64,000 nucleotides of DNA, from contig OZ374557.1 of assembly GCA_977862235.1 (NCBI GenBank), positions 2,232,001 to 2,296,000 of the forward strand, given 5' to 3'. The notes below the pieces were generated by a model. It did not search any database. It was not told the DNA's origin and saw only the letters and a list, made by a program, of their open reading frames with translations. Origin of the DNA: Dudresnaya verticillata. Its lineage: Eukaryota. A program made the translations under genes and the position numbers. Below are positions 1 to 28,130 of the stretch, one piece after another. The first letter of the stretch is position 1. Each line of letters opens with the position of its first letter.

Positions 1-20
1 TACTGTACTGACTATAATTC

Positions 21-3000
21 CTACCCAATCTTCTTCATGTTGCGCAAGTCCCACGAGAACAACAAGCCGTTTAGGCCCTTGAGATTGGCAGGAGGGTCCT
101 CTACTCCCTTGAATATATACGGATACGAACTTAGCTCATACTCCGCCATGACCTTCAAACTGTACACGACCACAAGATGCTCCCCTGGTTTGGCAGATTC
201 TGACAGATCGTGGCCGTGCAAGCGTTCATTCCAGTTCCCTCCTGGAGTCTTTTCCGGATGCAACACGGCCTCCCCCACTTCCTTATCATCTGCAAGAAGC
301 GTGACTCTGTCTCCGGCCTTGGGCATTGCACAAGGTTCAGGTTTTTCCTTCTCCTGCACTTTTCATTCAGCTCCACACTTCCTACAACTATGTCTTCACT
401 CCTGCCGTGCTTCTCGATACTCTCTTCGGGGTCATCCAATGCGTGCTCGGACGGTGTCGTCAGATGGGACATTTCAGGTCCCTTCCTCGTTACGGAATGG
501 TTTGTTGGTTGAGCAGAATCTATTATGACAACACTACCTCTTGCTGCCTCACCGATACCATTCAGTTCGTGATGAGCACTTGATTCCAAACGTTTACGAC
601 CTGTCTTCATTTCATATGCTTCCGTGGCAAGCCTACGTAAACGTTCAGCCCCCAGCTTGAATGTTTCGATCTGTGATTCGATTAGTGTACACCGACGATC
701 TGTTCTGAGAGCTGCAATCCCAGTCGTCATGGTTCCGCTGTGCATATCCAGAACTGATACGCCCTCCGGACAGAATGTTGTCATTATCTCCACAAGTACT
801 TCGGGAGACTTCTCTTCGACCAGAACTGGGGACTTGGTGCCTGGGCGTAGCAACTTGTGTTTCGGTGTTGGTAGAGAGGACATGCACGCGAATTTCCGCT
901 TTTCTGGGGAGGGGATGCAGTGATACTCGCTCCTAAGGTCGAGCGAGAACCCTCCGCCATGCTGACCTGGGGCACGCGCCATGACGGCTATTTCCACACA
1001 GTTCTGGGGCATACCGCTCCCCCGATGTTCCTGCATGGTCTTGGGGTCTTTGGAGAATACGAATGGGTATGCCGGGCACATGAATTGTGCCTTCTTCAGA
1101 GCATCGTGGAATACACTGAAGTTCAGGAATGACGTGAAAACAAACAACCACCCCCTGCTACAAGTACGCGCCTCGAGATCTCAACTATCTTCTTAATGTC
1201 TTCCTCGCTGAGGTAATTATCGAATGACCTCCCCGACTTAGACTGCGATTTCGGTGTACCGTATGGTGGATCTGTGAGGATTAAATCGAATCGTTTGTCA
1301 CCTTCCTTCCTTACGGTACTGTTGTAGCTCTGCCATGTCATCTGAAAGCATGTCAGTTTCATTTCCGCAAGATAATCTATTGGAACAGAAAGCGATCCGT
1401 CCTCCACCGGCACAGCCTTAGTACCCATGTTGAGGCGAACGGACTGCTTTGATAACACAGTTGATATAGTGGGGTCTGTGGGACTCTTTTCCGGCACAGA
1501 ATGGTCTTTGGCTGCACATGCAGCTGTAGGGTCTGCGTTCTGCATGGGTGCCTGTCCAGATTCTGCTGGTTCGCGACCCTCTTCCCTTTTCGAATTGGTT
1601 GATGTTACTAAGTCTGAACCCTCTTCGTCGTTAGAGATTCCGGTAGCGTCCACCTGCGGTGACAACGTGCAGTCCAAATTCTGTTGACCGTCAGAATCTT
1701 TTGCTCCACATTCATTGGAACCCGGGCGGGTCATGATAGCGTCATCACGTCTGCCTTCTGTCGAATCCATCACAGTTTGCATATCTTTGTACTTCTGCAA
1801 CTTCACTGGGGCCTCTTCCGGACAACACTCTCTGTACATCTCAACTATTGTTTTCAACAGTGTACGGTCATTACCTCGATTCATGATGACCTCGACGTCC
1901 AGCTTCGTAGTGTATAACAGGTTTTCTCTTAATTTACTCATGCCTAACGGCCATTCTGTCCCCTCCCTCATTGCTTCAAATTTCCGACTCTCGGAAAGGG
2001 CGGCTGAAGCTTTCACGAATTGCTCTTGTGTGTGTTTGGCCGAAACAGGTTTGAAATTGTGTGTCCTTGACACCTCTCGAAGCCTGTACAGGGTAGCTAT
2101 TTGAACAGTAATGCCGTTTTCAGAGCTGCCTGCATTCATAAAGGCCTTGGAAGACTTGATGGAACTGACGTGAATGAAGCGTCTGTATACTCTGCAATCC
2201 AGATTCTGCATCGCAACATTTGAGTCTATGGCCTTTCCGGAAGCAGTCAACAGTTGCATAGTTGCTAGTTCAGGGACCTCCTCCTTCATTATCTTCCCAA
2301 TTACATCGATAACGCGACGGTCAAGACGAAGAATGGTTGCCGCTGTCTGTTTGATAGTGTTTTCCGATAGATGACTGCATCCATCATATGCTTCGGCAAC
2401 TGCCGTCGCAGTCGGAATCTTCCCATTACTGGCTTCGAGACGGTCTGCCTCTTTCCTCAGACCGCATATCTGATCGTAAGACGTGGTCTCTACAAAAAAG
2501 CTGGAGTCGTGCTTTCTGTTCTGATGACGAGCCAGTTGCTTCAGAATCTGGATGTTGTGCCCCCCTTTAAGCACAGTGGCAGTCAAAGCAAACCCCTTCT
2601 ATGTCTCCCGGTCTTCATCGATTAGCTCCATAATGGCGATAAGTCGATGCATGCCATCAACAACTCCGAGCCACTCCGACCGACTGGAGGCCTCTTCTTT
2701 CACCTGTTTCTCTGTGTACTCTGTCCCATCCGCATTCCGTTTAGCTCGTAGAAACTCAAAAATGAAACTCCTGAAGGGACCTGTTAGGCGAGCCAGTATG
2801 GGTGCATCAGAACCGGCAATGTACCTGTTGTTGTAGTTAGCGCTCCTCGTCCCACCACTCCTGAAAATCTTCTTGAGCCTCTCAACACCGGATCTCGAGA
2901 TGTCCCTTATATCAGTTATTGGAACACAGGACCTGGGGTCTATTCGAATGTTGGTAGACCCCTCCATGACATCTCCAAACAGTGCCTGTGCCATCTCCTC

Positions 3001-3051
3001 CTTCCTTAAGGGCTCACTTGACCCCCTGCTCCGCTTCTTGCGCTTCGACAT
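21..3051 (-). pseudogene. ParB/Srx-like domain + beta-class N6-adenine/N4-cytosine DNA methyltransferase + C-terminal Tnp1-like domain (~1000 codons, disrupted)
   Basis: ORF 2599-3051 has WLGVVDGMHRLIAI (ParB/Srx DGxHR). An in-frame TAG at 2599-2601 joins it to ORF 1123-2586, which ends in FDLILTDPPYG (motif IV). A frameshift in a G-run near 1150 leads to ORF 155-1147 with EK..EV...I...CPEGVSVLDMHSGTMTTGIAA (motif X/I, SAM binding) and CTLIE. Catalytic-before-SAM order indicates beta class. A frameshift near 350 leads to ORF 21-359. Confidence 0.85.
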
Positions 3052-5245
3052 GGTGTGCGAGAGAAAGACTCACTGTGCAAGTGAAAACCGCTCTCCTTGA
3101 AAGAGTACGGAAAGGGGTACTGCATGTCCGACGAGTTGTCCAGATTCTGTTCAGAAAACCTTCCGCAAGAAATTCTTTACGTCCCCGGCTCATGTTTGCA
3201 GGGTGCCGTTTTCGACTGACACAAAACGGGCTTTTGACACACTGGACGGCGGGAGTACAACATGGATGTGCCGCAAATTCTGAGATGGCACGGGAGGTCA
3301 CGTGGATTGTTCACCGGGTGTGGGCAGTCTCCATCAGAACTATTCTTAGCACAGGCCGTACAGTTGGAATTGGTAGAATGCAGGTTTCAGCGGACCTGCA
3401 GGGCGAGATGTAAAAACGTCAATTAGGGCATGCTGCTCGCTGTCCCAGCCGACTTGGCCGGGCTTTGAAGTTGAGGCCGGCCTGGCCATGTGCTGATACT
3501 GCGAGTAAAATAGCATGCCACACACGGTTTCGGGGAGTACTGGCACACTGTTGCCAGCGGCGTGCCAGCGGGGGGCGCGGCGGTCAATTTACGAGGAACA
3601 GGTTCTTGGGGGTGGGAGGTGTCAACACCTGTGGGTGCAATATCAGTATCAGGGAACAGGTGGGGCGAGAGCGCCGGGCCAAATAGCTGTTCATTTGATG
3701 TGGCAAAATGCGCGCTGAAAAACCTGTATAGAATTTCTGTCCAATGATATTGAATAAGCTTGTAAAAGGGTCTTTCCATTGGGCCGCCGTCAACACCTTT
3801 ACAGCTTCTGAATGCGGCCAAGTCACATTGCTATGAGAACAGATATTGCGCTTCACGGCAACGCAGGAGCCCAAAGTGCAATATCAGTATCGGGGAACAG
3901 GTCCTGAGAGCCCGCAAACTCCACAATCTATCTGGCCTCGGCGCTGCGAGCTCACGAGATGAATGCCCAGAATGCGGACACAAATACGCCTACCACAACA
4001 CACTGCCTCACAAACGCCCTTACCCTCGCCGCGACGACTCCCGCTCCGCGAATCCATCACTCACGGTATCCTCCTCCACTCCCCTTCCTCTCCGCTGCGT
4101 AATACCTCCGTTGTGCTTGCCTGCCTGCTTACCGTCCTGCTTCCAGAAAGCCCACCACGTGCAGTACTGCTCTTACCCTGCCCATATGACCTCACGTCCA
4201 ACCCCACCCCCAGCCGTGCAACCGCAGCAGTCATGGAAATCGTTTAACGATAACTTACCTTTACTGACCTCTTGTTGCGCGCGCGCAACCGCCACAGTCA
4301 TGGAAAGTTTTAAGAACCTGGCCCTGCAGCCATGCCGCTAAAGGATGAGGTCTTTCCAGGAGGATCAGCCCCCTTCGGGTCTTTCGGCGATGGATTCTTC
4401 GCTCGTGACTTCTTTGCCACTATGACAAGATGAATCGCAGGCACAGACATGGCAACACGATACGGTGTACGAGAACGGAAGCGATGCCATGTTAACGGTG
4501 ACGGGGTTGCGAAGGCCTCCATGGCTGTTCGACGTGTGGATCGTCTCTGAATGCACACTTGCCACTCGCCCTCGCAAAAAGCTAACCGTCGCAATCCAAA
4601 GTACTGTGGAAGCCTCTATAGGTCGCACCTGGGCCTAGCAGAGGCAGGGAGAGGGTCGCGCGAATTGAGATGAGGGCTTCCTACAACCCCCGATGAGGAC
4701 CCCCTCGCTATCCATTGTACGTCGTTTCATCCCCTGCAAACACGTCTACACAGGACAGAAAATCCTCACAAACGCTCTCTCCGTGGGCTTACGCCCTTTT
4801 CGGTTTTGTGCGCTTCTCACTCTTGTTGTTGACCACGATTGACAGCGCCGTGATCAAAGCTTTCGCGCCACCGGGTTCCAATTATATGGCTGTAGTTTCG
4901 CTTGTTGAGCTATGGTTGCTTGCTGTTTCAACACAGTAGAATAGTTGCTTATTCTAAGTGGATAAGGCGTCGGCACATTTGTCTTTGATATTGTATCTTT
5001 GTTGTTCGATGAGGGCCGCAAAAGCCAGTCCCTTGCTGACATGCATTAGTAAGACAAAGACGTACGAAGAAAGAGGTATTAATGCACGAGGTGGTGGGAC
5101 CGTTTTGAGTGCGGCGACTCCGAATACCCTGCCGCAGAAGCGAGTGTGCACGCCAGAGACCCCATCACGCGGAGAGCTCTATAGCCACACACCTTTCGAG
5201 TCAAGCAGATACAAGCACTGGCTCACCGACACACTGGTACATGCA

Positions 5246-6255
5246 ATGGAAGCAGCACCAACCCCTATCGGCCCTGGAGTGGCGCCGACCGGCGCCTCGT
5301 CGCGCATCCACTGCGATGTCACACCAGCAACCAACAAGCTCGAGTCGCATGTAGCAGTGCCCTGCCTAGAGCGCGCAGTCTCGCTTGGTATGATCGCGGA
5401 TACATCCGAGGCGCGGGAACAACTCCGGTCGTTTCACTTTTCAAGTCTCACGTCCTCGCGTGTTCCCCTCTGCAGACCGCGCGCGCCTGGAAATTGCTCT
5501 ACACTTCTCGTAATGCTTCTTCACCTTCGACAATTTATACTGCGTCGCACGCGGAGGTCGGCCTGCGCGCGTTGGAGGAGCACATGGTGGCCATTGCTTC
5601 CGTGGATGACACGCGGAAGGAAGACGAGCCTGTCGCGCTGGCACTAGGATTGATCATGGAGCGGGTACGGAAGATCGCGCATGCAAGCTCGGTGACGCGC
5701 TTTGCTGGACACGTGAAAAAGTATGTGGAGCGCGTGCGGTGGGAGCGCGCCATGCGAAGTAGCGGGGAGACTCCCGAGCTGGCGACGTTTTGCAAGATGC
5801 GTGCACACTCTGTCGGGGTTATGCCTTCGGTGGACCTGGTAGGGATGCTGATGTGCAACGGGGATTCAGCGGCCGTTGAGGGGTGTGCGTATGTGGGGTA
5901 GCTGTTGGTAATGGGTGTGCAACCATGTTGCGTGGAAAAATGATGTCGTCAGCGTCTGGAAGGACATCCGGGATGGGACAGCGGATAATGTTGTCCTTGT
6001 AATAGCGAGGAAGAGGGGCGTCGGTTGGGCGGAAGTGGTGAAAGATGCGATTGATATATGCAACAAGAGTATATAGCGTACGTTTACGCAAACCCAAACG
6101 TTTGGGAGACTGGAACGGATTGTTGAGAGGTTAAGGGGAGGGCTGACAGAGATACGAATACTTATGTGCAAGGGCTTAAGCACTGGATCCGTGGGCACCT
6201 GGACTGGTGTTCGGAGACGGCGTGTTACCGGAAGGAGTTGGAATTGGCGGCGTAG
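5246..6255 (+). pseudogene. Microbial-type (class I) terpene synthase pseudogene
   Basis: Motifs in correct order across frameshifts: VFPSADRARLEIALHFS*CFFTFDNLY (degenerate Asp-rich helix, ~5460-5540), KMRAHSVGV (R-sensor, ~5795-5820), AWKNDVVSVWKD (NSE/DTE motif, ~5930-5965), NVVLVI, and YVQGLKHWIRGHLDWCSETACY (WxxxxxRY-like, ~6163-6228). No introns apparent. Confidence 0.85.
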
Positions 6256-6924
6256 AGGTTCGGTGTTGGGTTTGCATCATCGGGTAAGGACACGACACTT
6301 TGTGCATGCAGTTCAGACACTTGTATCGCGATTGCAGAAACGTTAAACAAGAAAACGTGAGTTGGAGCTTTTGTTGCTTCTCAACATGGTCACCAAAAAG
6401 TCGTCTATGCGCAGACAGCACTGCCCATTCGCAGCCTGCAGTCTCTAAGCGCGGTGGTTATCGAGGAGGCGCTGAGCTTCATCACGAAGGGCGCAAGATT
6501 GGAAACAGACACCGCAGAACCGCGTGCATCCGCCTGTTCTAGAAGAGCGGCTAGGACCTGCACCCTACAGCCCTAGGGTGATCGTCAGTTGTATGTGTCC
6601 GCCTCTCACCAGCTGGAGAGTTGTACCTGAAATGTAATTGGCCAAGTGCCGAACCAGAATCTGATCACAAACAGAATCTGGATGGCAGAACAACCCAGAT
6701 GCACCCCGTGCAGCCACTCGTGCCGCTCTACGGGTGTGCAGCCTCAAGAGCAGGCAACAGGCGGCGCGGCGCGGTATCACAGAGGGTATTTAATGCGCAA
6801 GCGTTTTGCTGCGAAGGGCTGCGCCTCCCCGCCATGTCGGACATGTGCCTTAAGAGACTACAAAGCGGGCGCTCTGCTTAGAGCGTGAAGGGAAGACAGA
6901 ACGAGTGGCACTCTCACAAGCTGT

Positions 6925-9914
6925 GTGCAGATGCCGTCGCGCAAGGGCATTTTGAACGACATGGAAATGAGCCCGTCAACTACGGATTGCGCTGAGCGAG
7001 AAAATGAAGCAAAGAAAGGAGGAGGCAACGCGCGCGACGAAGGGCGTGTTGCTCTTCTGTATGACAGGGAAATGGTCGGCACTGCTATTGTCAAGAGACC
7101 GGGGACAAAAGAGGACGCAGACCAGTCTGGCAGGTATTGTGTCACCCTGCATGGCCACAAATTGTCTCCCAGTCAGAAAAAAGGGGAGAAGCTGGTTGTG
7201 GTTTACCGAGCACAAATCATGCAACCGTATGAGAAACTTCAGTACAAATACAAGTACAAGACAACGGACTCAGTTCCGCACACACTTGGGGAGATGGGTG
7301 GGGGTTTTCATGCATGGGATGTGAACTACATTCAGGAGCTCGGCAATCGAGAAATCGCGCCGTTGTGCCAGAGACGGTTGTACTCTCCACGACAAGGCAT
7401 AGTTCGTCGCAGAATTTACCCAATACTGAGCAATTGCCCCCCGACGTCAACTGCAGAACACAATGCCGCAGCGGTGGCCCCTACCGCATCGCCCCAGCAG
7501 ATGACACCAGTTGACACGACAAGGCCAGCATCACCCCTCCAACAAAATGCGGGGCCGCAAGCGGATGCCGCAGCGCGGTCAATTCGAACAATACCCCCGC
7601 CTGGCAATGTTCCGAGCAGTGAGGAATTGAGTGAACCGCGAGAGCATTTGAGGGAGGCCGGCCATGATGATGCGGACGCCGTACGGCATGTGTCGGAAAG
7701 TCATGACGATGCGTATGACCCTTTTCAGAAGGTGCAGGTCAGGACGAAGCGAAAGTATACTTACAGGAAGAGAACATAGCAGACATTCAGTGGGAGAGGA
7801 AGTCTTCAGAAGAGACGTAGGCATCTGTTCCAAGTCCTGGAACGCGCAAACACGCAGTCAATGAGATGCTGCATCGGAAACAAGTGATTCCAAAGTGTGG
7901 AGCAAGTGTACTTAAAGGCGGAGGCGCGCAGAATTGCCGGAATGAACGTAGAAGCAAGGCGAACGTATCTTCGCAATCTGTTGGACACGAGCAAGATGAA
8001 ATACTTTTCAACCGTCAGCCTGTCCGTTACAACTTTTTGGAGCAGGCCTTTGGATTCTCCCGTGACTTACAGACCTCTGTAAAAGGCACGAGGCAGTCCC
8101 GGAAGCTGCAACTCCCAAACAATGCGAGGCGTGATACCTCATCCCATCAGCAGGATACTATTATTTGCTTCCTTGAACGTCTTGCGGACAGCACTGCTGA
8201 ACCAATGCCCGATAATGGGGAGTCACACCTCCCCTACTTTCAGAAATCAGTTGTGTACGACATCTTCAAATTGGACCACACCAGGCTGTACAGAAACAGG
8301 GATATTCCGTGTCAGAGTTACTTTTACTTTGTATGGAAACACAGTTGCTCCCGCATTAAGGTGCGAAAGACACACCGATTTGCAAAGTGCAGCGAATGCG
8401 AACTCATTCGCGAGCGACTTGCTCAAGCAGGGACCTCTGGAGCAGGCACTGAACACCTGCATGAGCGGCGCAACATTCGCTTGAAATTCATACAGGCAGA
8501 GAGACGTGAATATCAGAAAAAATGTGAGCAGGCGATACTATTGCCGCAGGAGTATTGCTCCCTCATAGTGGATGGTGCTTATCAGTCCGCATTTGGACTT
8601 CCCCATTTTGTGGTGTCGTCCAAAGCCAGCATTGGGCATGCCATGAAAGCGAAATTTATTGGGGTGCTTGAACACAGGGCTGAGAAGCGTCTGCACTTGT
8701 ACAAAATGACCGGTGAGTTCGAGACCAGCGCGAACCACATTATCGAGGCGTTGCACAGAACGCTTTCGGACAAACAGTCCAGAGGAGAGCTACAAGGGAC
8801 TTTATTTCTACAAGTAGACAACTGTTCGAGAGAGAACAAAAGTACCTTTTTGTTCTCATACCTGGAGAGTCTCGTTGCATGGGGTGTGTTCCAAGAGGTC
8901 TTCGTGTCTTTCCTGCACGTCGGGCACACTCACACAGATATAGATCAGGCCTTTTCGTGCACGGCACGCCGGCTTAAAGTTCGGGACGCAGTCACAATGA
9001 CTGAATTGATGGAAGAGCTTCGGCAGTCGTACAGTCCAGAACCAGTTGTCAGTCGCATGCTTCAAATTGGGATTTTTTCAGGCCTGTGTCGACAGGAAGG
9101 ATGCATTGGTAATGTTGAGGCATTCACGACCTATCGCTATTTCAGATTCCACCGTGTGGGTCCAGCTGCTGCGACGGAAGAGGCAGAATCTGTTGCAGCT
9201 TTCGTGACAGGCTGTCAATTGAGAATGACATGCGCGGATGACTTGTTTCCGTTGCAGACTGGAGGAGAGCATAAGGGGTTCATACTATCCCCTCCTGACC
9301 TTGGCAAGACTCCAGCAACAGTGGTCAAATCGCCGCCAGATTTGAAGGAAGTCAACGACAGGTTTCGTTCTGAAGAGACACGTGTGAATGACACGGGAAA
9401 GATGAGGGAGCTGCAGGAATTGCGGGACCACGTGTACAGAGATAGGCTGGAAACGTTTCATTGGGATATGGGACGCATATTTTAGACAAGGGGAAAGTAC
9501 AGCGGAAGAGCGGCGCTGGAGTACGTACCGGAAGGGGATGACGGTGAGGAGGAGACTGTGACCCCCTCTTCAGACCTGCAGTACACGAAGAACTACTTCG
9601 TTGCCGTTGTGAGGGAGAACGCCACCGCACGATGCCCATTTTGGATTGGACAGATTCTAGATGTTGTGCAGGACGCTACGGGAAAGGCTACTGAGCAGTA
9701 TATAAGATGGTACGAGGCGTATGAAGGTAAGGGTGCTTGGGACGGAAAGTACAAGGCATCCATATACTCAGCGACTAAGCAGCCATGGACTGGTACTGTC
9801 GGCGTCGCGACCGTAATGGTCGAATTCGAAGCTCTTACGAAGAGACGTCTACCGCAGCTCGTCCAGAAGAGAATCAGAGAATCGCCGTTGTTAGTTTGGT
9901 ATGCCGGCTCTTGA
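6925..9914 (+). pseudogene. DDD-type (Sola-like/DUF7869-like) DNA transposase with N-terminal Tnp1-like domain, Cys-rich motifs and C-terminal BAH-like domain; disrupted
   Basis: ORFs 6925-7779 and 7897-8082 are in one frame, separated by stops. A frameshift at a T-run near 8005 leads to 7866-9485, and an in-frame stop leads to 9558-9914. Motifs: RCC..K, FAKCSEC, LIVDGAYQ, LFLQVDNCSRENK, FLHVGHTHTDIDQAFS. C-terminal PFWIGQI...IRWYE resembles BAH/SH3-fold modules. Superfamily assignment is from remembered motifs only. Confidence 0.75.
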
Positions 9915-10104
9915 TACGAGAAACAGCTACAACCAGTAAAGTATACTCTCAGGTTGATGCAGCACACGAGAAATGCAAGGCCATTCGACGCCTGTAGCGC
10001 CCGTCTACGCCACAAGCTAAGTCTGAACCGCGGGTGTGCAAGCGGCTTAGCTACCTGGTAGTGTACCAGGTCGGGCGGGTAGTGGGCCCAGTTGTGAGCA
10101 CGGG

Positions 10105-10570
10105 TCAGAATGCGGGTGGCCGTGCCGCACGGGAGCGGGGTAGGGGTGAGGGAGGCGTGTCGGGGGACTGCTGGGCGGGGCTGACCATGCGTCAGAATGC
10201 GGCAACTTGATGTGGACGTGTCAGAATGCGGCCAGGCGCGGTGCGCAGGAGCGTGGGGAAGGGCGGCGGCGAGGTGTCGGCGAACGGCAGGGAGCCTGAG
10301 ACAGAGTGCGGTCAAAGGCCGGACTGGGGCGGGGAACGGCACTACGGGTCTGGGAGGGGGTGGGGAAGCGCGCCTCATTACGCGCAAGGCAGAAGCAGAG
10401 CGCGTGCACACGCGCCAGAATGCGGAATGCGTGGGCCAGTAGCAGCACCAGGAAGGGTGATGGTGGGAGTGGCTGTCGGATGTGGGGAGGTGGCCGAGCG
10501 CGCGTCGGAATGCGGTGGGAAGCCAAGACCGAGCGCGTCGGAATGCGGCGGGAAGTCGCCAGAATGCGGT
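10105..10570 (+). repeat. Subterminal short direct repeats, core (CA/CG)GAATGCGG, about 8 copies
   Basis: Copies near 10106, 10192, 10221, 10302 (variant), 10415, 10505, 10538 and 10559. The 10495-10560 stretch includes a longer duplication CCGAGCGCGTCGGAATGCGG. Confidence 0.85.
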
Positions 10571-10807
10571 GTTCGGTCGGGGGGCGGGGGCGCGGGCGCG
10601 GGCGGCGGGACGGGCCAGAATCAATTTCTGGAGAATTTTTAATTGGAACTTTTCGGAAAAATCACAACTTTTGGGAACTTTCGACCCCGGGGGCCCCATA
10701 TTCTCAGGGTATCGCCCCCTTTCCAACGCGCTATCGAACGCCGGGATTCAAGGACCCTCAAAAAATTCTGTTCTGTTTTGGAAATTCTGTAGCCGGCGAA
10801 ATTAGTG

Positions 10808-13800
10808 TTACGTGCGTACGAGGTTCCCACGTAGGCGTCGCGTAGCCGTCCCACTTGATACGAAACACGAATTTTCCAGCGTCGTCGGTCGAGTGATCGA
10901 GGATGCGATCGACAACGTATTCGGGGCCTTCGGTGACCTTTTCCGCAATGTCTTCGGGTCGCGTAATCGACGGTCGCGAATTCGTAGGGGTTGGCGCGTA
11001 GATGCAGCGGTCCGCGGAGACGCGTTCAACGAGGCCCTTGCGATCGATTACGAGTGTACGCGTATCGCTGAAGAGCACTTTGTACGGCCCCTCCGCGGGG
11101 GATTTCAACTTCGGAAGTTTCGTTTTCCCATCGTGGGTATCGAGGTACACGTAGTCTCCGGGTTTGACGCGGCTCTTCGTGTGGCGGATGCGCTTATCGA
11201 AGTCGCGTTTGTAACGATTTTGAACTCGCTGTAACGAAGTGCGTGCGGAATCGATGGCGAAATCGAGTCGCTTAACGAAATCGTTGCGAAGGTCCTCCGT
11301 GGGTTTTGGTCGATGCTTCCGGGAGCGATGTTTCACGGTGAACTCGGGCGGTGGTCGCGATAAAACGAGATTGAACGGAGTTGTCTTCGTAGAACGATGA
11401 ACGTGGCAATTGTACGAATATGTTAACGCGGAAACGTAGCGGTCCCAATCGTTTTGGGTGTCGTTCACGTAGTTACGAAGCATCGCGAGGATAGTGCGGT
11501 TATAGCGTTCGGTTTGTCCATTCGTTTGCGGGTGATACGCGGAAGTGAATACGTTCGATAACCCGAGTAGGCGACAGACGCCCTGAAAGAACTTCGAAGT
11601 AAACTGTTTCCCGTTATCCGAGAGCACCGAGGCTGGCGGTCCATACTTGAAGATCCAAACTTCGCAAAAGGCAACGGCCACGTGATACGCGGTTATTACT
11701 CGTAGTGTGGCCACCCGGGTCAACTTCGTAAAGCGATCCGTAATCACGAGAATGAACTTGCGTCCGGATTTCGTTCGTGGCAACGGGCCTAAGATGTCAA
11801 TCGCGACCGATTCGAGTGGGCGCGTAGCGGGGAAGAGCTTCAAGCGATGAAGATTCCTTCGGAGACGGATTCGATTCCTTGCGCAATATTTGCAGTTACG
11901 AACCGTGGATGCGATATCGGCGGCCATGTAAGGCCAGTAATACGTTTCACGAAGCGAGTAGAACATATGATTTTGCCCCGGGGGGCCTGCGAGTAACGAA
12001 TGATGCGCCAGCGTGAGCAAGCGAGGTCGGAGCGTCTCGGGCAATTCGATTTGCGTTAGCTTCGGAATCGTTGGGTGCGTTCGTCGCAGGAGACCGTCTC
12101 CATCTTCGTGAAAGAGACTATCCTTCGTTTTCGATTGTCGTGATTGCACCGTTTGGCAGAACGAATCAATACGTTGTCCTTCGAGGATTTCGGTTACCGT
12201 AATCGGTGCAGGTAGGTCTACGGGTTTCACGTCGGTGAGGTCACTCGGTTATTCGCTGGGATCAATTCGATAAAGGTCAAACGGATCATCGTCATCGATA
12301 TCGTCCCATAAGTCGCAGTCATCGTAGACATCCTTTTGCCCTGCGTATTCATCACGTAGCTCTGCGTCGTGTTCGTGTTCGCAGCCTTCGTGGTACGTAT
12401 CATTGTGGGGTTCGGAACCCGTGGTGACCTCCGTGGGTCGTGGTGTAGTGCCGGCTCGATATACGCGTGTCGCGGGTGTAGTCTTTCGCGTAGAGTCGTG
12501 GCGAATCGCGGTGGGCTTCGATTGACGTTTGCGGGATCGCGTAGTAATGAGAACCGGGTCTCTTTCGTTTTCGATGGTTTTCGTAATGTCGTTGCGGAAA
12601 CGTTCTTCGTTCTTCGCTGCGATTTGATCCGAGTCAAACGTAGGAACGTCGTTGTCGATTGCGGGTTGTTCACGATACGGAAGTAGCAATCGCGAGAGGG
12701 CATCGGGAATCTGGTGGACGCGACCGGGGCGATACACGATTTCGAAGTCGAATTCGGCTAAGCGAAGCCTCCATCGCGTGAGTCGGCCGGACGAATCGGT
12801 GAGAGAAAGAAGCCATCGGAGCGCATCGTGGTCCGTACGCACGGTGAACCGGGTCCCTTCGATATACGGACGCAACGATGTAACTGCCCATACGACTGCG
12901 TAGCATTCGCGCTCGGTTGCGGAGTAGTTCTTCTCGGCATCGTTTAACGAATACGACCAGTAGCCCACGGGTTGAAATTCTTCGTTATCTTGCTCCTGTA
13001 GCAACGCGCATCCGAGTTGATACGCAGACGCGTCCGTATCGATAATGTAACGTTTCCCGAGTTGCGGTAACCGGAGTATCGGCGGTGACACGAGCTTCCG
13101 TTTGAGCGTTTCAAATGCGGTAACCTGATCCTCCGTGGGATTCTCGTAGTCGGGATCCGCGTCCTTTCGCGTCATGTTCGTCAACGGTCGCACAATTTTT
13201 GCGAAGTCTTTCACGAATCTTCGGTATATGTTACACGCGCCGAGGAACGAACGGACTTGCGTGAGTGTCTTCGGGAACTTTGCGTATCGGAATGCCTCGG
13301 AGCTCTTCTCGGCCATACTCAGCTTCCCCGGGGAAATCACTTGTCCGAGATAGTCGACTCGCTTTCGGAAAAGGAAGCACTTCTTCATCTTGAGCGAAAC
13401 CCCGGAGCTGCGAAGTAACGTGAGAACTTGATCGAGATGCGCGATGTGTTCACGAAGATTTGCGGAGGAAACGATCACGTCATCGAGGTAAACGAGACAG
13501 CACTGCCAACGGACTCCGGATAGAATGATGTCGAGTGCGCGTTGAAACGTAGCGGACGCGTTTTTCAATCCGAAGGGCATACGAAGATAACGATAAGTTC
13601 CGAGAAACGAAATAAACGTAGTCTTATCGCGGTCTTCCGGGGCAACCGGAATCTGCCAGTATCCGCTGTTACAATCGAGTTTCGAGAAAATAGAAGCGTC
13701 TCCGAGTGAATCGATACAATCTTCCATCCGGGGAAGTGGGTACGCGTCGGATAGCGACTTCGTATTGAGTCTTCGGTAATCCACGCAAAAACGAAGTGTT

Positions 13801-15347
13801 CCGTCTTTCTTCGGTGCGAGGACTACGGGGGACGCCCACTCCGAGGTGGCTGGTTCGATTACTCCGGCTTCGAGCATACTGTCGATTTCGTTACGGACGA
13901 TTTCACGTATTGCGGGCCCTTGACGATATTGGCATCGAACGAATAGGTCGAGTCCCGGGTTGTAGATCGATCCGATGCTCCGTGGCTGCGATCGTTCCTA
14001 GGTCTCCGTTCCACATCGATTCGTGCTTACGTAGCATCTCGAGGACGTCGTTTCGCATAGTTTCATCGGGTATGTTCGAAAGGTCTACGCGTTCTTCCCA
14101 ATCGCGGGAACTCGAATTGGCTTCTGCTGCTGCTGTCGCGGCGCCCTTCGTGAGCGGTTTTTCCTTCGTGGATACGGATTCTTCGGGTGACTTCGAGTCG
14201 TCGTGCTCACGTAGTGTAGAGATGTTGAGCACCTTGGCAAACGAATCCGCGACTCGCGATCGGGTGTCGGAATCGCGCGCGGGTTTCGAGCTGCGTATCC
14301 GATGACGGTTCCCTTCGGTAGAGTTCGAGGCTTACCCGTGAAGTTCGCCATCAACACCGAAAACTCGCGATTCGGACTGACTTCGTGTATCCCGTTCGTT
14401 AACCGTACTCCGTGTCGGTGTTGTAACGAAGGCTTCGGTTCGATATGAATTAGTCCGAGTGCTTCCGAGGTCACGGTGACTAGCTTCTGCGAATAACTCG
14501 GTATGGTGACACGGCGGTTCAAACGAATGGTACGAGTGTCTCGGTCCCAATCGTGGAGCTCGCGTTGATGTCGTTTCGATAGCGTTTTCTCGAATTTCTG
14601 CTTCGGATTTTTCGAATTAGTAGCGGGCGGAGCCGATCCAGCAATGTGGTTGATAATCGGAATCGTGCTTCCACTCTTCGTGATGAGCCTCCGTGGGCTG
14701 AGCTCGATGCTTCGTAAATGCGCGTCCATCCACAAAGTTCCAAAGAGAACGTCGACTGCGAGTTTCTCCGCAACCACGAAGGGTACGCGGTATCGAACGT
14801 TCCCAAGGCGGACTGTCAGGTAAACGATACCATCGAGTCGCAACGGGGTGCGATCAGCGGATGCGAGCCTCGGAGCTGATTCCATCGTGGACGCGTTCGA
14901 TTCCCAACCGGTGGGTAACGCAGCCCGGGCTATAAGGTTGTAACCGGAACACGTATCGACTGCAATCGTATGCAGTGTCATTACGGAGGCATCGAGGCCA
15001 ATGGATCCGGTCACGAGGAAGATCTCCGAAGTCATCAAGCAAACGTATCCCTCGGTGGTAACTTCGGGTTCGATCTTCGAGATCGGTATCTTCTTCGAAT
15101 TGTTTTCGCACGAAGCGTCTTTCGCGAGGACTCGACATCGCTTTCGGTCTCGTCGTCGTGCAGCGCGCTTCCTTCGCATCACAGCGGCTCTCGGAATCTG
15201 AATACGCGGAGTGTCTCGGGGAACGTTAACCGGTTCTCGCAGTCCGTGAAAACGTTGACGCGATTGAGCCGAGTCACCCGAACCTGCCCTCGGAGGCTTA
15301 CGAAGACTCCGCGAACGACGGAAGAGGTGATCGATCAACCTCCCCAT
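10808..15347 (-). pseudogene. pol: Element A pol: protease, RT, RNase H, integrase, chromodomain
   Basis: AVDTCSG (protease); LRFCVDYRRLN, MPFGLKNA, YLDD (RT); DTDAS...TDH (RNase H); C..C, AIDILGP, SDNG, GQTER (integrase); GPY; EYVVDRILDH...IKWDGY..PTWEP (chromodomain). Frameshifts near 14235 and 13925, in-frame stop at 12249. Confidence 0.95.
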
Positions 15348-15374
15348 TGGACGCGGACGCTCGCAATTCGGATT

Positions 15375-17708
15375 CTAGTTCGAGTTCGGAAAACGAGTAA
15401 AGGCGAAGACGCCCGTTGTGTCACGCGGTTGACGGCCCGGGGCCTGCGCGTGTCTTGGATTGCGGAGGACGGTCGGCGGTCCTCGACGCTCAAAGCTGAC
15501 TTGACGCTGGGATCGGTCCCTCGGGTAGCGCGTATCGCCTTGACGAAGATCTCGGTTTGCGCGATTGTCACGTGATCCTCGGGAGTCTTGTCCACGGTGA
15601 CCTCGATTGTCAACGGACGCGAACGAATTCCCTCTTGATGCGCCGCGATTCACGAAGTTATTACGCGTATACGGTCTCGTTTCGAGTTGGTACAAGTAGT
15701 TCTGGTACGTGCAATAGAGTTCTTGCTCCTTCGTGAGATACGGACACGAATACATGAGGTGACCGATTTCGCGACAGAACCAACACGGCCACGCATCTTG
15801 ATTCTTCGGTATCATCGAACGCGCCATCTCGATTTGCTCCGGGGTCATCGGTGGTACACGTGCGGGTACGAAACGCTCGATGCGACTCGTGAGATCTAAC
15901 GTATCGTCCACGGAGACCGTTGTCGAATTAGTCGGTGTAGCGGATGTGGACCCGGTTCCTGAACGAATCATCATCACTGCCATTTGCGGATCTTCGTTCA
16001 TCGGGTACTCGTATTCACTCCCGGGAGTGTCGCAAGCTTCGATAAGCATCGTGCGTCCGGGCGCTTGGCGACTCTTTGGGTACGTAGCGGACGCTCGGTT
16101 CTTCGAATCACGCGACTGTTGGGCTGCGGTGTCACGTAGTTCGCGAGCTCGGAATGTCGTGCCTTCGGCTTGCGCGATTCGTTGCACGCTCATAAAATTC
16201 TTCTGCTCGGACAGCGGTAGGCGTCGTACCTGGTCGGCCACGATAGGATACGTAGTATGTAGTAATCCACGAATAAACTGGTGCGTTAACGAAGAGTCAT
16301 CGTAGACACCGGAGCAGGCATCCGCGTAGCCTTGCAAACGAGTCGCGAACTCCATCTCTGTTTCATCGGACTTCTGCTTCGCGGTTATCACGCGATCGTG
16401 TGCGTCTGCGATTACGTCTTCCGTGAGAAATCGTTGTAGTAACACGTTCACGATCGCGGACCAGCAAACCGGGTTGCCCGTACGAACGCCTCCGAAGGCA
16501 TAGTGTTGATACACCTTGAGCGCGGTCTCATCGAGAAACCACGAAATCGTACGAACTGCTGCTCCTTCGGTGAGCCCGACTCCGTTCAACGCTTGTCGAA
16601 TATCACGAAGAAATGCGAGAACCTTAATCGGGTCGCGTCCCGTAAACTTCTCGAGTCTCGGCATCATCCAACGCATGCGCGAAACGGTTTTCGACGTGTT
16701 ACCTCGGAATACTTCGTGTTGGTTATCCCGAGGTGACGAATTCGTGAGTCGATACGATCGATAGCTTACGGCCCGCGCGAATTCGGGAATGAGCGTCGGT
16801 ATCGGTTCGACGCCCGGCTCGAGCGGTCCCCAGTGCCAGAGCGATGACACGGGTCCCGCGAGCGCTAACGTATTTTCGATTACGGGTCCTCCGGGGGACA
16901 TCGGTTATTGAAGCGAATCTCGGAATACTGCGGGGTTGATACGGGGGTTGTCGGAGGCATCGGTTGCCTGATGCGATAAAGGGTGCGGGGACGGATTCGG
17001 ATACGTGTTTTTCGGTAACGTAGATTGGGCACCCGGGCCTTGCACGGGTTGAACTAGCGGCGAATGGAGGGGGTCAGGACGGGCTTCGGAATGATCTTCG
17101 CGACTTCGAGACTTCGGTAACGCTGCGGACGCGATGTCACGAATAGCGTTCAACTGTTCCTCGGAGAATGCGTGCGAGCTGCGAACGGGAAGCGAGTGAC
17201 TCGCCTTGCCCACGGGGGCGGATACGTTGCGCTCGAGCACGAGAAACCGATTGCTGACTCCCGAGACGAGATCCCGGAGACTCTCGAGTGAGTCTTCGAT
17301 CCTACGGATCTTGCCAGCCCGGAGATTGTTGAACTCTTCGTGAACTCGATTGTGCGTATTACGAATCGAAAGCTGCGTGATACGGTACGCGGTAGAAAGC
17401 GCATCGATGACCTCTTCGTAGAGTAAACGTAGTTCTGAACCGGAGACGTGCTTCATCGAGAAGAGTCGATCGACGGTATCCGAAGGAACGATTTCCAACG
17501 GAGTGTACGTATACGAAAGGTCGGACTGGCTACCGTGAGCCTGCGAACACGAGTCTGTGCGAAGATCGGGTACCGTTATTCGTGAAGCGCGAGTGCGAGA
17601 AAACGGTTCTCGGTCACTCGCGTTCGAGTCGAACAACGGGAGCTCCGGAATCGGTACGTCATCAGGTTTCGGTACCGGCGAATCGGGACGACTCGGAGCG
17701 TGAGACAT
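15375..17708 (-). pseudogene. gag: Element A gag (in-frame stop at 16905-16907)
   Basis: SYRSYRL, FTGRDPIKVLAFL, QKSDETEMEFATRL (MHR-like), zinc knuckle CWFCREIGHLMYSC. Confidence 0.9.
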
Positions 17709-17760
17709 CGTGTCTCGGATAGAAACGAATTACGAATAAATGCGAAACTTCGGGACCACG

Positions 17761-17778
17761 TTCTAGGTCGGGAGACCA
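17761..17778 (-). promoter_or_regulatory. Primer-binding site of A, TGGTCTCCCGACCTAGAA
   Basis: Lies 1 nt inside the LTR end and is identical to the PBS of B, C and D. Confidence 0.9.
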
Positions 17779-17779
17779 G

Positions 17780-18701
17780 TGTGGTATAACGAAGTCCACG
17801 GAGACGCGGGGAAGTCTCGCACTGTAAGGAATGGCCTCGGAGCCTAACGAATGGCCTCGTAGCCTAACGGAGAAACGAAAAGGGGTGGTAGCGTTGTAGA
17901 GCGGAGCGACCAACACGAAGGACCACGGTGTCAACGTATTCGTGTGCGGAAGGGAGAACTTGAGCGATCGATCACCGGGGATGACTCCGGGTGCGTGGGG
18001 CTATCGAAAGCGAGGCTCGACCGTATCCGCGGTCACGAAGACGAAGACACCGAACTCGAAGAAACAGGCGTTTACCGAAGACTCCGAGGTCCGGGCGCTA
18101 GTCGCTTGCCGGAAACCCTCGGAGGTTGTGCCAGACGACTGGCTAAGTAGTACTACGTGAGCACGAATGCGCGTCAACTCGGGAGACGGTTCGTACTCGA
18201 ATGATTCGTAACGGCCTCGGTGCCAGCGAACGGTCGCCTCACGTATGGTGGCGGTTGCGAAGTGCGCCAGCGATGCGCGTGTGTCGTGGGCCCCGGTGCC
18301 GTTACGCGAGGGAAACAACGGGAAAGTCACGAAGATGTCAGCGATTTCGTATCGGGTGCGCACTGTAATGCGAATGCCATCGTGGCGCGCGCGATCACGA
18401 AGTCGGATCGGGATTCGTCCGGAGGTGTCAGCGATTTCGTATCGGGTGCGCACTGTAATGCGAATGCCATCGTGGCGCGCGCGATCACGAAGTCCGATTG
18501 GGATTCGTCCGGAGGTGTCAGCGATTTCGTATCACGTGCGTGCTGTAATGCGAATGCCATCGTGGCGCGCGCACCGTATGCATCGCTGTAATACGTTTGC
18601 CATCCTGGCGTGCACATTCACGGAGTCATTTCGAAATTCATATTTCTCGATTATTTTCACGTAGGCCACGGAGTCGTTTCACGGATAGTGTCTATACCAC
18701 A
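17780..18701 (-). repeat. 5' LTR of element A (922 bp)
   Basis: Perfect 9-bp terminal inverted repeat TGTGGTATA...TATACCACA, with adjacent PBS. Confidence 0.92.
18336..18572. repeat. 90-bp tandem repeat (~2.6 copies) inside LTR A
   Basis: TGTCAGCGATTTCGTATC... starts at 18336, 18426 and 18516. Confidence 0.95.
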
Positions 18702-19429
18702 ATCAGAAAGATACGTTTGGCCAACTGACGACAGTGCGGCCGAGCGGACGCCGGTGAACATGCGTAAGAGGCACACGTGTCCAACAAGTGTACACGTGTG
18801 TCACACGTGGCCACCACGTGTGTCACACGTGGCCACCTACGACACCCAAGCGCACCACGTGGCTCGCTGTACACGTATGATCGGTGTGATCGGATCTGGA
18901 AGCAAGTGCGGAAAGGAAATTGGATTTGGCCGCAGGTGAATCAAGCAGAAGACAGCGGAAAAATTAAGGGAAAATCTAACTCATTTGGCCAACCACTAAC
19001 GAACAAGTACTTGGTTTAGTCTGGTAAGGGTACAACATTGGCCCGACGCCGGAACACAAGTAGATATTATGGCCGACGGGGAGTAACCTCGGCCACTAAC
19101 TGTGGAATAGCTCTAGATTAGCTCTAGTGGCCGTCTTTGGGCCTACTTAGACGGCCACAAACCACGGCTCGGCCAGAATAGGTACGAAGTCGTCCCGCCA
19201 GAGGTTGGGAGTAAAGTTTTGCAACCTTTTCCCCAACTCGGCCATTTTCCACTGCTCATCCAGGATCTTGGCCGCGACTTCGTCTGTGCGCTCCCGCTCT
19301 ACCACGCTTGCTACCGGCGCGCAGGTCCGTTCTACGTTCGGCCGTTTGCTACGAAATCCGACCGATCTTCCTGGTCCTTTGGGGTCTCATCCTGGCGTCG
19401 CATTCGGTGGTGCGTTTAGAGATACTACA
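18702..19429 (+). repeat. 5' LTR of B (first ~65 bp displaced by insertion of A)
   Basis: Near-identical to 42945-43650; ends GATACTACA followed by C + PBS. Confidence 0.95.
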
Positions 19430-19430
19430 C

Positions 19431-19448
19431 TGGTCTCCCGACCTAGAA
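19431..19448 (+). promoter_or_regulatory. Primer-binding site of B
   Basis: TGGTCTCCCGACCTAGAA immediately after the LTR. Confidence 0.9.
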
Positions 19449-19796
19449 GATCAGCTGAGGTTTCGGCCGTATTTCTCCGTTAGAAGATTCGAGTAGCTGG
19501 CCGTAGTCGACGCCGGCCAGTATCCTCCTCGCTACTGTGGTGGCCAAAACCCGCAAGTTGCAGATTGCGGGTTAGTCACTACCCCGTCCCGCAATCTGGT
19601 CATCCGTGTACTTCAACCCGATTCTGTAGCCGCAGTCTAGGTCACCGACCAGACACCCGTCGCTTGGTTCGTTCCCAGGTCGGCCGCTTTGCACAATCAC
19701 TGGTTCGTTCCCAGCCCAGGGAGCTTTGCACACGGCAGTGTCCGACCCTTGGTATAGGGACTAGAACTCGGAATCGTCCGTTCCCACCCCTGTGTT

Positions 19797-20291
19797 TTGC
19801 ACACGACAGTGTGGTTCCCAGGTAGGCCACTTTGCACACATCGGCCACGGGGTGTCCACGAATCGCTAGAAGTACACGGCGGATCAGTCCTTGAAGCACT
19901 TCTTCATGTCTTCTTCTTCTTCTTCGGACACCCGCAGTCCTTACAAGGCTCGGCTCGGCCTCCCTCCACGTTGGGCGCTCCCATAGGCCCACCCCCTGCT
20001 CCTGGCCTGTATCCACCGTTGTCGGGGCCAACACCAGCCCCTCCCGTCCCGTTGTCGACTGGGCGGGGTATGCCTCCAACAGTCGGCCGAGCAGCGTCAG
20101 CTTCCACGGCCGGTGTCGTCCGTAATGAGGTACCGCCGCGTACAGCCCCACCGGTCTCGCCGTTTCGCACGCCACCAGCGGCCACCGCGCCGCCGATGAC
20201 TCCACTGGCCGCTCCTGCCAATCTTCGGCCGCCTCCGGTTGATGATGATTCCCAGCCAGAACACGATGTCTGGTTGGGCCGGCAAGAGTTC
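19797..20291 (+). pseudogene. gag: Element B gag, Pro-rich N-terminal part (start uncertain)
   Basis: ...DVWLGRQEF continues in frame as YQYKRRTAEWQ... after removing element C and one TSD copy. Confidence 0.7.
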
Positions 20292-23916: not shown

Positions 23917-26900
23917 GTGGGAAGGAGTAGTGACCTCATGTTACCTCTCATCACCGTATTGGATTCTGGTGCTGGGCCAAATCTCATTAACGCCAGACGG
24001 CTTCCACGCCACTGGTTGTCTTTGATTCGCCCCGCTGCCAGTCCACCTTTACGGGATGCGTCCAATAGGTCGATACGCCCGCTTGGTGTCATTCAACTTT
24101 TTGTCCGTATCGGAGACTTGCGTACTCGAGTCCACTTTCTGGTGGTCGCGAACCTCGCTGCTCCGTGTATCCTGGGAACCAGTTTTATTGATCGCCATGT
24201 CAAGGCGATCCTCCCACCGGCACGGAAAGTTGTTTTTCATCACCACTCCCCGGTTTCGTTGATGGGACAAACCGGACACTCCAAAACGGTGGCTTCTTCT
24301 ACCCTTCAGGGCCCCCTGTTTCATCCGCTTCGGTATCACAAAAGCTCTGCCTAGCAAAATCCCTTATTATCCCCCTATGGCCCAATCCCTTGCATTGGTT
24401 ACTACTCCTACCGGTGGTTTGTGTTTTCTTCAAAACCATCCCAAACCCATCCATAAGCACCTCACCCTTATGGCCAACGGGGCTATGGATATAATCCCTA
24501 ACAAACCCTTTAAGGTGTGGCTGACTAATTTTCCCCCAAACCGGTGCGGTTACCAAAGTCTACCATCCTGGGCCTCGCTACTGCTGCTCCCTCTGCCATA
24601 CTCACCGTTAACGGTGTACCTCCATTTAAGGAGGGGGGAGGACATATTAATTCCTTTCCTACTCCTCCTAATGAAAGCAGCGAGGCTACACCCCAAGATG
24701 GATTCAAAGGAAACACCGCATCGGAATCAACTACAACCCCTAACACCGATTGGAAAGATAACATCCATATTGGTGCCAAGGATGAAAAACCCCGCGCTAA
24801 GGTGGTTACACTCCTCGAGGAGTTCAGCACTATGTGGAACGGCGAGTTAGGGAATATAACTGCCGCGAAACACCGTATTGAATTAATGCCTGGTGCCAAA
24901 CCGGTGTATCAAGCACCATATCGGTCAGGACATAAACAGCGCGAGCTGGAGAAGGCAGAAGTGGATCGTATGTTGTCCGCTAAGGTGATGGAGCCATCCG
25001 CTTCGGAGTGGGCCAGCCCTGTGGTCTTCGTTCCTAAAAAGGACGGCTCCATGCGGTTTTGTGTCGATTACAGGCGACTTAACGCTGTCACCGTTCGGGA
25101 TTCATACCCTTTACCCCGGATGGATGAATGCATCGACTCCCTTGGAGAAGCTACAGTATTCACCACTCTGGATTGTAATAGTGGCTACTGGCAAGTAGAG
25201 ATCCCCGAGGAGGAGCGTGACAAAACCACCTTCACCAGTCATTATGGATTATACCGCTTCCGGAGAATGCCTTTTGGGCTCAAGAACGCACCCGCTACTT
25301 TCCAACGGGCGGTTGACATCATCCTATCTACGGTGAAATGGCAATTTGCCTTAGTCTATCTGGATGATGTGATTGTATATTCTAACACCGTCACGGAGCA
25401 CTTCGAACACCTTAAGGAAGTCCTCACGCTACTCCGTTCCGCAGGTGTAACTCTGAAATTATCAAAGTGTGCCTTCTTCGACACTTCCGTACAGTATCTG
25501 GGCCACATAGTGCACCCGGGCCAACTGGAAGTGGAACGGAAGAATATTCTCGCCATTAAGGAGGCTAAGCCACCTACAAACCAAACGGAGTTGCGCTCTT
25601 TTCTAGGATTATGTAATGTCTATCGACGCTTCGTTCCCAATTTCGCACGCATTGCTTCGCCACTCAACAAGAAAACCGGCAAGGGTCTGGTATTCGAGTT
25701 TGGAACTCTCACCGAAACGGAGTTTAACGCCTTTGAGGAGTTAAAGAGACACCTAATCTCTCCTCCAATATTGGCTTTACCCCGCCATGGTTTCAAGTAT
25801 ACATTGGATACCGACGCTTGTGATTACCAAGTTGGGTGTGTCCTTCTCCAGGAGCAACCTAGTGGAGATAATCTACCAGTGGGTTACTGGAGCCGAAGCC
25901 TAACCGATGCGGAGAAGAATTGCACAACCACTGAAAAGGAGTGCCTTGTTGTAGTTTGGAGTATGCTGACGCTACGCCCCTACCTTTATGGTGAAACATT
26001 TATACTCCGTACGGATCACGACGCATTACGCTGGATATTGAGTTTAGCCGATGCGTCTGGACGCTTAACAAGATGGCACCTACGCCTATCGGAATTTGAG
26101 TTCGAAGTACAATACCGCCCTGGTATCAAGCACCAACTCGCAGACGGTATGTCAAGACTCCGAACAGGTGGTGCTGACAAAGCTGAATTGGATGAAGAAG
26201 TGCCTTGCTTCGTTATGGAATCGACTCGTAATGGTGTAGTGCAACATGGTGTGCGACTAACCAATTGGAAACAGAATCAGAAGCCTGATGCCGCAAGCAG
26301 CCTTGTCCTAGGCGTTGAAAGTGGAGACACCGAAACGGATACTACGCCTGAAAAGGATACAGTACCACCCACTCCACTCCAGCAAACGGTCATCCAACAA
26401 GAGGATATGCGCAATGAGACCCTTACCCGTGAGGATTTCATAGCCGCGCAAGAAACAGATACTTTCTGCAAGCTTAAAGCCGAATCGGTGGGATCCCCTG
26501 GATCACAATTTGACTACGACCGACATGGGTTTCTTGTGCGCAAGTCTGCCCTCGACGGCGCACTCCAAGAGGTGGTACCACAACAGATGCGCGGTAGGGT
26601 CCTGTATCTTGCCCACTACACCTTGATGTCGGGACACCCTGGTGGAATTAAGATGTATTACACCTTACGGAGAGACTACTATTGGCCACATATGGCTAAC
26701 GATGTATTCGAGACCGTTTGGAGTTGCCGCTCATGTGTCAAAACCAAGGGCACGCGGTTTAAGCATCAGAAGTTCATGAAGCTATTTCCCGCGAGTGGCC
26801 CACTGGAGTTTGTCGCTACGGACATATTGGGCCCGCTGCCGAAAACCAAACGGGAATATGTCTTTGTACTGGTCTTCACCGATCGGTTTTCTAAGCTAAC

Positions 26901-28130
26901 ACGGTGCATTCCGCTATGGAGGATTACAGCCGTCGTGGTGGCGAACGCATTTTTAGACCATTGGGTGTATGCGTATGGCGCACCTAAATTTGTACTCACC
27001 GACAATGGAAGACAGTTCAAGGCGAAGTTCTTCGACGCTGTCTGTGCCCTACTCGGAGTGCGGCATTTGCTGACCGCTGCCTACCACCCGCAAACCAACG
27101 GGCAAGCCGAGCGGTTTAACAAACCCATCGCGCAGCGCCTTCGACACTATGTCGAGGATCACCACACCGATTGGATTTATACCTACAGCCGTTAACCTAC
27201 TCCTACAATATGCAGGTACACCGGATTACGGATACTACTCCTTTTGACTTGGTGTTAACTCGACACCCATGGGATATTATTGTGCGTGGCACCCCTGTGG
27301 AGTTGGGAGAAACCGTTACGGCGGGGCGTATGACGCCCGTACTCCAAAAACGGGGAACCATGCGGCGTTTGCGTTATGCCCTACAGAAGGCGCAGACCAA
27401 ACAGACTACAGCCCAGTTGAAGTCGAAGGCCTTCTTCGACCGTAAAGTGCGTTTCCGACCGGTGGTTCGCGGTGGCGATCAAGTCTACGTAGATCGCCCG
27501 CCGCGTAATCTACGACCCACCGAACGGAAGGAACGCGACCGATTGGGTCAAGGCCCTGACCACGTCGGTGAATTTGCGGAGCAAATGAAGAAGCTCCTCC
27601 CAAGATCGACGGGCCCCTACGAGGTACACACCGCAACGGACACTGTAGTCACTATCAAGAAGGATGGCGTCCTGATTCCCATCAGCATCGATCGCATCAC
27701 TAAGGTACCAATTGGAGTTCCCGTGCAACCGGCGCCGCTATTGGCTCCGCCGGTGACGCCACACACCGACATGGATGATACAGTATCCCAGCAGGCGGGA
27801 GGCACCACATTAGTACCCCAAACACCAGGTGGTATTACTGTAACGCCCCAAACGCCAGGCGGTATTTCTGTCCCCGTGCCGGAGACAATTGATGCCGACA
27901 CGGAGTATGTCATCGAGCAGATCGTGGGACACCGCAAAGAACCCACGGGCATGACTACAAGGTGCGTTGGTACGGCTACCCACCAGACCAGGATACGTAT
28001 GAACCCGCTGAGGAGTTGCCGCAAAACTTCATACACCGCTATTGGAATAGGAAGCGCACGGCAGCCGCTGCAGCTCGACGCCGCAGAGCCCCCACGTGTC
28101 GATAGCCGGTCGCCAATCACCTACGCAGTA
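23917..28130 (+). pseudogene. pol: Element C pol (PR-RT-RH-INT-chromodomain), frameshifted
   Basis: VLDSGAG; YLDD; DTDAC; GHPG...C..C; TDILGP/TDNG/GQAER; GPY; EYVIEQIVGH...WYGYPPDQDTYEP. Confidence 0.95.

Follow-up and report, generated by a model that had tools for sequence, protein, structure and literature searches.

The first 10.8 kb of the window (the whole 64,000-nucleotide stretch of Dudresnaya verticillata DNA that was analysed) is a dead copy of a cut-and-paste DNA transposon, likely of the Sola1 type and more than 10.8 kb long. The reading that we favor, and consider probable, is that the transposase and a helper gene stand head-to-head in this dead element, with the terpene synthase between them being a more decayed passenger that was taken a single time from a red-algal host. 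The left end of the element lies beyond the window start, and the right end interrupts a retrotransposon. The features are as follows.

21..3051, minus strand: pseudogene with a predicted ParB/Srx fold, a helical region, a DPPY beta-class amino-methyltransferase and a C-terminal beta domain of ~100 residues (the helper)
3052..5245, no strand: spacer with candidate ParB-site words
5246..6255, plus strand: microbial-type terpene synthase pseudogene, full length
6931..9914, plus strand: likely Sola1-like DDD transposase (DUF7869) pseudogene with a predicted C-terminal BAH/Tudor-like barrel
6943..7335, plus strand: second copy of the methyltransferase C-terminal domain, in frame with the transposase ORF and at its start
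10106..10569, plus strand: subterminal array with seven copies of CRGAATGCGG in a GC-rich tract
10798..10807, plus strand: right end of the element, at 10807 (CACTA-type) or at 10798/10799
10808..17729, minus strand: interrupted gypsy LTR retrotransposon (gag-pol) with its chromodomain cut

The transposase and its methyltransferase partner

An earlier sequence-only reading had placed a DDD transposase on the plus strand, and the searches bear this out. The gene at 6931-9914 matches PF25273 (DUF7869) at an E-value of 1e-43 and is 44-51% identical to the aligned intact relatives, with 36 relatives overall at 40-59%. It carries four lesions in 3.0 kb, namely stops at 7779, 7887 and 9485 and a frameshift near 8000. 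In the structure model of an intact relative (P0014, pLDDT 75), residues 350-523 form a compact RNase H core without an insertion domain, which scores Z 7.4 against Mos1 and 7.9 against an integrase, values of 7-8 being within the common range of the tool. Among the 37 sequences examined, all 30 complete ones have 80-86 residues between D1 and D2 and 42 between D2 and D3; a CxxC stands 60-64 residues ahead of D1 in them, and the D2-D3 interval has none. The Sola1 profile given in the supplement of PMC5751038 consists of G-x-N-x-I, D-N-C-x-x-Q-N-K-N and F-L-x-x-G-H-S. The motifs of our transposase are collinear with it, its Q reading E here, and the spacing from the catalytic D to the GH is 36 in that profile as well as in 30/30 of the complete sequences (37 examined). 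Because motif order and the 36-residue D-to-H spacing agree with the published profile, the transposase is likely Sola1-like, the match being a comparison by eye with the published description rather than a profile score. Of a Sola1 element one would expect both the profile motifs and, in its DDD transposase, a compact RNase H core. Among PDB sequences the transposase profile had no meaningful match, Foldseek returned no transposase match at E 0.001, and DUF7869 was not found in the literature searched. The transposase and gypsy queries had no match among viral contigs. At the C-terminus of the family is a predicted BAH/Tudor-like barrel (P0014 residues 692-796, ~9560-9890 in the window), which could possibly act as a chromatin reader for target choice.

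The gene on the minus strand had been read as a ParB-methyltransferase, and this too stands. It is 45% identical to the intact P0002 over 908 aligned residues with its DPPY intact, and its intact relatives comprise 11 proteins at 29-53% identity. Pfam gives weak N6_N4_Mtase matches to pieces of the 21-3051 gene and no ParB match. A frameshift-aware alignment places three lesions in its 3.0 kb, a stop at 2599 and frameshifts near 1160 and 355. Members of the helper family run from an N-terminal DGMHR domain through a helical region and a linker to a DPPY-first methyltransferase and a C-terminal domain of ~100 residues. [VI]DGMHR is present in 10/10 alignment rows, VDGMHR being a form of the DGxHR ParB/Srx motif. 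The structure model of the intact relative P0006 (pLDDT 66) scores Z 17-21 (best 20.8) against beta-class amino-methyltransferases, and its residues 16-181 score 8.0 against the ParB-N domains of PadC and Pnob8 and 6.6 against KorB. The helper thus combines a Rossmann-like fold in which DPPY precedes the SAM-binding motif, as in the beta class, with a predicted ParB-N fold and the DGxHR motif of ParB/Srx proteins. Bacterial M.BceJIV, M.MboIIA and CcrM and the rotifer N4CMT have the same fold and motif order, the difference being that the methyltransferase of the helper is fused to ParB/Srx plus extra domains. It is plausibly a predicted self-modifying amino-methyltransferase. The DPPY motif points to N6-adenine as its putative target, although N4-cytosine enzymes share the same fold. 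Since DPPY is retained in nine of the ten full-length helpers (and in the window copy), P0003 and P0006 are candidates for testing a 6mA/4mC mark written by a transposon. The helper alignment found no match in metagenome and viral contigs.

The C-terminal domain of the helper (24-350) occurs a second time in the first part of the transposase ORF (6943-7335; ~38% identity, E 2e-19), and this N-terminal copy is absent from every transposase homolog. We also considered a TnpA/Transposase_23-type identity for the domain and found no support for it, with no Pfam match and no usable Atlas match.

That transposase and methyltransferase belong to one element had been proposed from the window, and the relatives support it. 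We collected 89 transposase loci: nine lie on genome contigs, and the other 80 are the best of 479 in metagenomes. Four close-clade loci have 2.5 kb or more of upstream sequence. The helper lies head-to-head with the transposase in three of them (L015, L016 and L026), and the fourth, L014, lacks it over 5.2 kb of upstream sequence. Over the 18 fetched loci with at least 2.5 kb of flank, seven have a ParB or MTase match at E<1e-3 (L015, L016, L025, L026, L033, L036 and L088). The match of L042 is borderline, and L030, which has 2.4 kb of flank and is near-identical to L033, also has such a match. Eight contigs of two helper clusters agree exactly in size, and in source, with those of two transposase clusters, in a look-up that covered 10 of 11 helper and 10 of 36 transposase clusters and drew the pairing from matching sizes. 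Helper identity tracks transposase identity (66/60, 52/49, 46/40, 54/40, 41/37 and 41/28 percent). With the linkage at these loci, the matching contig sizes and the identities falling together, the pair is an old unit. The distance between the two genes is 3.9 kb here versus 0.6-2 kb in relatives. The quick tree of the transposases kept 89 of 99 rows, its helper labels including L042 (borderline) and L066 (by eye).

Several side observations were made at these loci. Distant DUF7869 transposases of other eukaryotes have a large upstream helper at L025 (1095-5099, minus), L033, L036, L066 (1382-4855, minus) and L088 (1744-4041, minus). The distant types are a ParB-MTase with a SET-like tail (by eye), an OTU-ParB-MTase (L033:711-4283, minus), an MTase-SET on the same strand as the transposase (L036:2360-5743, plus) and a ParB-like protein without a clear methylase motif. 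Inverted repeats of 82-87 bases lie between helper and transposase, just upstream of the latter, at L025:5049-5310 and L036:5873-6119 and are candidate binding sites. At L012:2948-3493 (plus) a SET-domain gene (E 9e-17) directly follows the 3' side of a close-clade transposase. The DUF7869 transposases L001-L009 come from short contigs in prokaryotic MAGs and are probably eukaryotic contaminants.

The terpene synthase between the two genes

The reported terpene synthase is indeed there, full length and with no intron seen, matching PF19086 (Terpene_syn_C_2) at an E-value of 1e-12. It is 35-37% identical to the best homologs in the alignment, the top relative among 1.8 billion representatives reaches 39%, and a word-based search returned no relatives for it; the core genes have relatives at 53-59%. 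In a quick tree it clusters with synthases of Plocamium and Portieria (SH-aLRT 97), and the red-algal nature of the host was deduced chiefly from this placement. Plocamium TS-C2 (WNY22666.1) and Portieria TS-2 (WNY22664.1) share its Pfam family and clade at ~30-37% identity, the window gene differing in being broken and without an intact DDxxD or WxxxxxRY. It has frameshifts near 5459, 5538, 5920 and 6130, stops at 5513 and 5901, and a further stop inside a short insertion at 6076. The DD of DDxxD reads DN at a frameshift and the RY of WxxxxxRY reads CY. Without an open frame and with one of the three motifs (NSE/DTE) retained, it does not qualify as a functional class I terpene synthase. Its GC content is 57%, versus 50-51% in the flanking genes.

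The sequence-only reading had also held that all three genes were decayed to a similar level. This fails, because seven of the 14 lesions fall in 14% of the coding length (binomial p 0.0013): the synthase has seven in 0.95 kb, a six-fold higher density than that of helper and transposase together (seven in 6.0 kb). Missense decay separates the synthase from the core genes less clearly than the lesions do. Invariant positions are changed at 7/24 in the synthase (two of them beside a break) versus 18/148 and 15/148 in the core genes, and leave-one-out controls gave 4-17%, 1-24% and 1-19%. No synthase homolog was found at any of the 89 transposase loci (nine genomic ones and the best 80 of the 479 metagenomic ones). 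The synthase is thus most likely a host gene that was captured once and was dead before this copy inserted, and is probably private to the present lineage; that there was a single capture is inferred.

One alternative is that the synthase is cargo of the whole family, functional in the active element and spread with it, and that this copy simply decayed unevenly. The gene is full length, is enclosed by the element, runs in the direction of the transposase and has kept its NSE/DTE motif, and extra transcribed genes are described as frequent in giant algal transposons (PMC12477816). This explanation is nevertheless unlikely given the lesion density, the absence from the 89 loci and the lack of any close synthase relative. 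It is further disfavored by the 5994-base contig common to a 979-residue helper and a 791-residue transposase, which leaves less than 0.7 kb and therefore is too small for a synthase; shared contigs of 9.7-12.4 kb do have room for cargo. We give a similarly low chance to the strongest form of this idea, in which a red-algal Sola1 family spread a working synthase together with a self-methylating helper genome-wide and intact synthase-bearing sisters persist in the species. If it were true, the element would have seeded new synthase copies through the genome. Given the decay and the 0/89 loci, the claim that the element moves a metabolic gene holds only for a dead and probably one-off cargo.

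About as improbable is that the synthase arrived already as a pseudogene, through a local rearrangement or within a second, nested mobile element, once the transposon had inserted. A stretch of ~2 kb beside it is an unexplained spacer, one repeat of the subterminal type lies at 3968, helitrons have been observed close to terpene genes in red algae, and nested insertions are reported to be common in giant algal elements (PMC12477816). However, we found no terminal repeats or target duplication around the synthase, and at threshold neither a transposon domain nor any other Pfam or Rfam match turned up in the spacer (3052-5245). An Rfam search of 1-20000 likewise had no match. Within the spacer, a GCAATATCAGT-like word occurs five times in both orientations at 3492-3888. 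These are candidate ParB sites from a pattern picked post hoc, and the word, though clustered there, is not enriched over the window (13 versus 10.9 expected).

Under the favored reading of a one-time host passenger, the history might run as follows. The transposase would bind the element ends, excise the element and reinsert it. The helper would attach, through its ParB and helical parts, to words repeated along its own element, and the enzyme would methylate adenine at N6 (or, alternatively, cytosine at N4), a mark that may keep the element expressed or regulate transposition. The synthase would have come to lie in the spacer that separates helper and transposase, probably in the repair of an excision gap, and would have become non-functional and drifted at a time when selection still acted on the two core genes. 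Insertion into the gypsy chromodomain and decay of the element would have followed.

The right end and the gypsy target

The subterminal repeats that had been noticed are real: CRGAATGCGG is present in seven copies within the 464 bases of 10106-10569, and in nine in the window versus 0.32 expected. A left terminal inverted repeat at 6255-6925, which the sequence-only reading had named as one sign against a single unit, is missing there, because the terminal 14-mer (up to three mismatches) has no second copy in 1-10793. The proposed insertion of a block longer than 10.8 kb into a gypsy ORF is upheld as well, since that ORF, with its integrase, runs into the element within the chromodomain (Pfam Chromo matched 1-39 of 53). 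The sharp junction claimed there does lie in the chromodomain, and it is sharp only to within ~10 bases (10798-10807). At this place the gypsy ORF has WEPRTHV followed by TLIS, which runs into the supposed end; its closest paralog within the window has WEPETLLPATLVSRF. Bases 10799-10807 may therefore be gypsy sequence with a loss of two codons, and the true end may be 10798.

We put the odds between 10798 and 10807 at about even. An end at 10798 gives a CGCCG terminus and an AAAT target; the end at 10807 gives CACTA. Sola1 elements prefer AWWT targets, which AAAT fits. CGCCG also resembles the AACCG terminus described for Sola1-1_Ec32 (PMC12477816), and CACTA does not. Against the end at 10798 are the deletion that it needs and a weak excess of YAGTG at the right ends of the loci (7 versus 2.8 expected; left ends 3, controls 2 and 1). 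The string that had been suggested for locating the left end may accordingly start with nine gypsy bases.

An EnSpm/CACTA or Plavaka identity, like that of the transposons known from Chondrus and Bostrychia, is very unlikely. The element does read CACTA inward from 10807, has short subterminal repeats and shows YAGTG within the last 25 bases at 7/89 locus right ends (those of L018 and L025 being plausible), and red-algal giants of that class are described as carrying methylase and ParB genes (10.1101/2025.02.11.637652, PMC6431247), but none of the Pfam families for EnSpm or Plavaka gave a match at E-values up to 1, the transposase core does not fit the EnSpm/CACTA-Plavaka (CMCT) pattern, its D2-D3 interval being 42 residues long and free of CxxC, and several of the seven YAGTG ends sit in ORFs or at a cut flank.

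The 3' LTR of the interrupted gypsy element is outside the window, and this fits with the 20 largest repeat families having no copies in 1-10807. The remainder of the window (10808-64000) is a nest of gypsy elements, with one family present twice (~25500-30100 and 59300-64000). The observed/expected CpG ratio is 1.72 in the interrupted gypsy versus 0.8-1.15 in the DNA transposon.

Comparison with known systems

Several known systems resemble parts of this element. Giant Plavaka (EnSpm) elements with PAG1-3 and the 16-20-kb EnSpm elements of Chondrus are also large and red-algal, with an N6-adenine methylase (PF01555), a ParB domain and repeat arrays proposed as binding sites (10.1101/2025.02.11.637652, PMC6431247). 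According to the Bostrychia preprint, Plavaka and other red-algal elements carry genes of the methylase-SET and ParB-oxygenase types (10.1101/2025.02.11.637652), and accessory genes are described as moving among transposon families (10.1101/2025.02.11.637652, PMC6431247). There, PAG2 joins a methylase to SET and PAG3 joins ParB to a 2OG oxygenase (10.1101/2025.02.11.637652), whereas our element has ParB and methylase in one protein and, unlike those red-algal giants, a transposase that is not of the CMCT type. The methyltransferase domains of DIRS1 are described as likely inactive (PMC4738411). Pack-MULE and Pack-CACTA elements likewise hold a host gene between transposon ends that is usually non-functional (PMC10741241, PMC6431247); in contrast to them, the carrier here retains transposase and helper and its passenger is a whole gene. 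The synthase relic represents one route for duplicating or moving terpene synthase genes in seaweed genomes, with the passenger dead in this copy.

The closest system is Sola1-1_Ec32 of the brown alga Ectocarpus, which is 21.5 kb long and ends in AACCG..CGGTT with a 282-bp imperfect TIR and a 4-bp TSD (PMC12477816). It carries on the opposite strand a gene for a 1104-residue ParB-like protein with an N4C/N6A methyltransferase, for which self-modification was proposed (PMC12477816). Both elements exceed 10 kb and have such an opposite-strand gene, a likeness by description, and the account of Sola1-1_Ec32 in PMC12477816 reports no terpene synthase. The combination had seemed new from the window, but the pairing of transposase and methyltransferase is not, because Sola1-1_Ec32 already has it (PMC12477816). 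The helper-plus-transposase design is thus already published as a proposal, and the window adds to it a likely red-algal branch. Among the papers listed by the literature searches, no title or abstract beginning reports a terpene synthase within a Sola element, and the one new feature is the terpene synthase between the pair.
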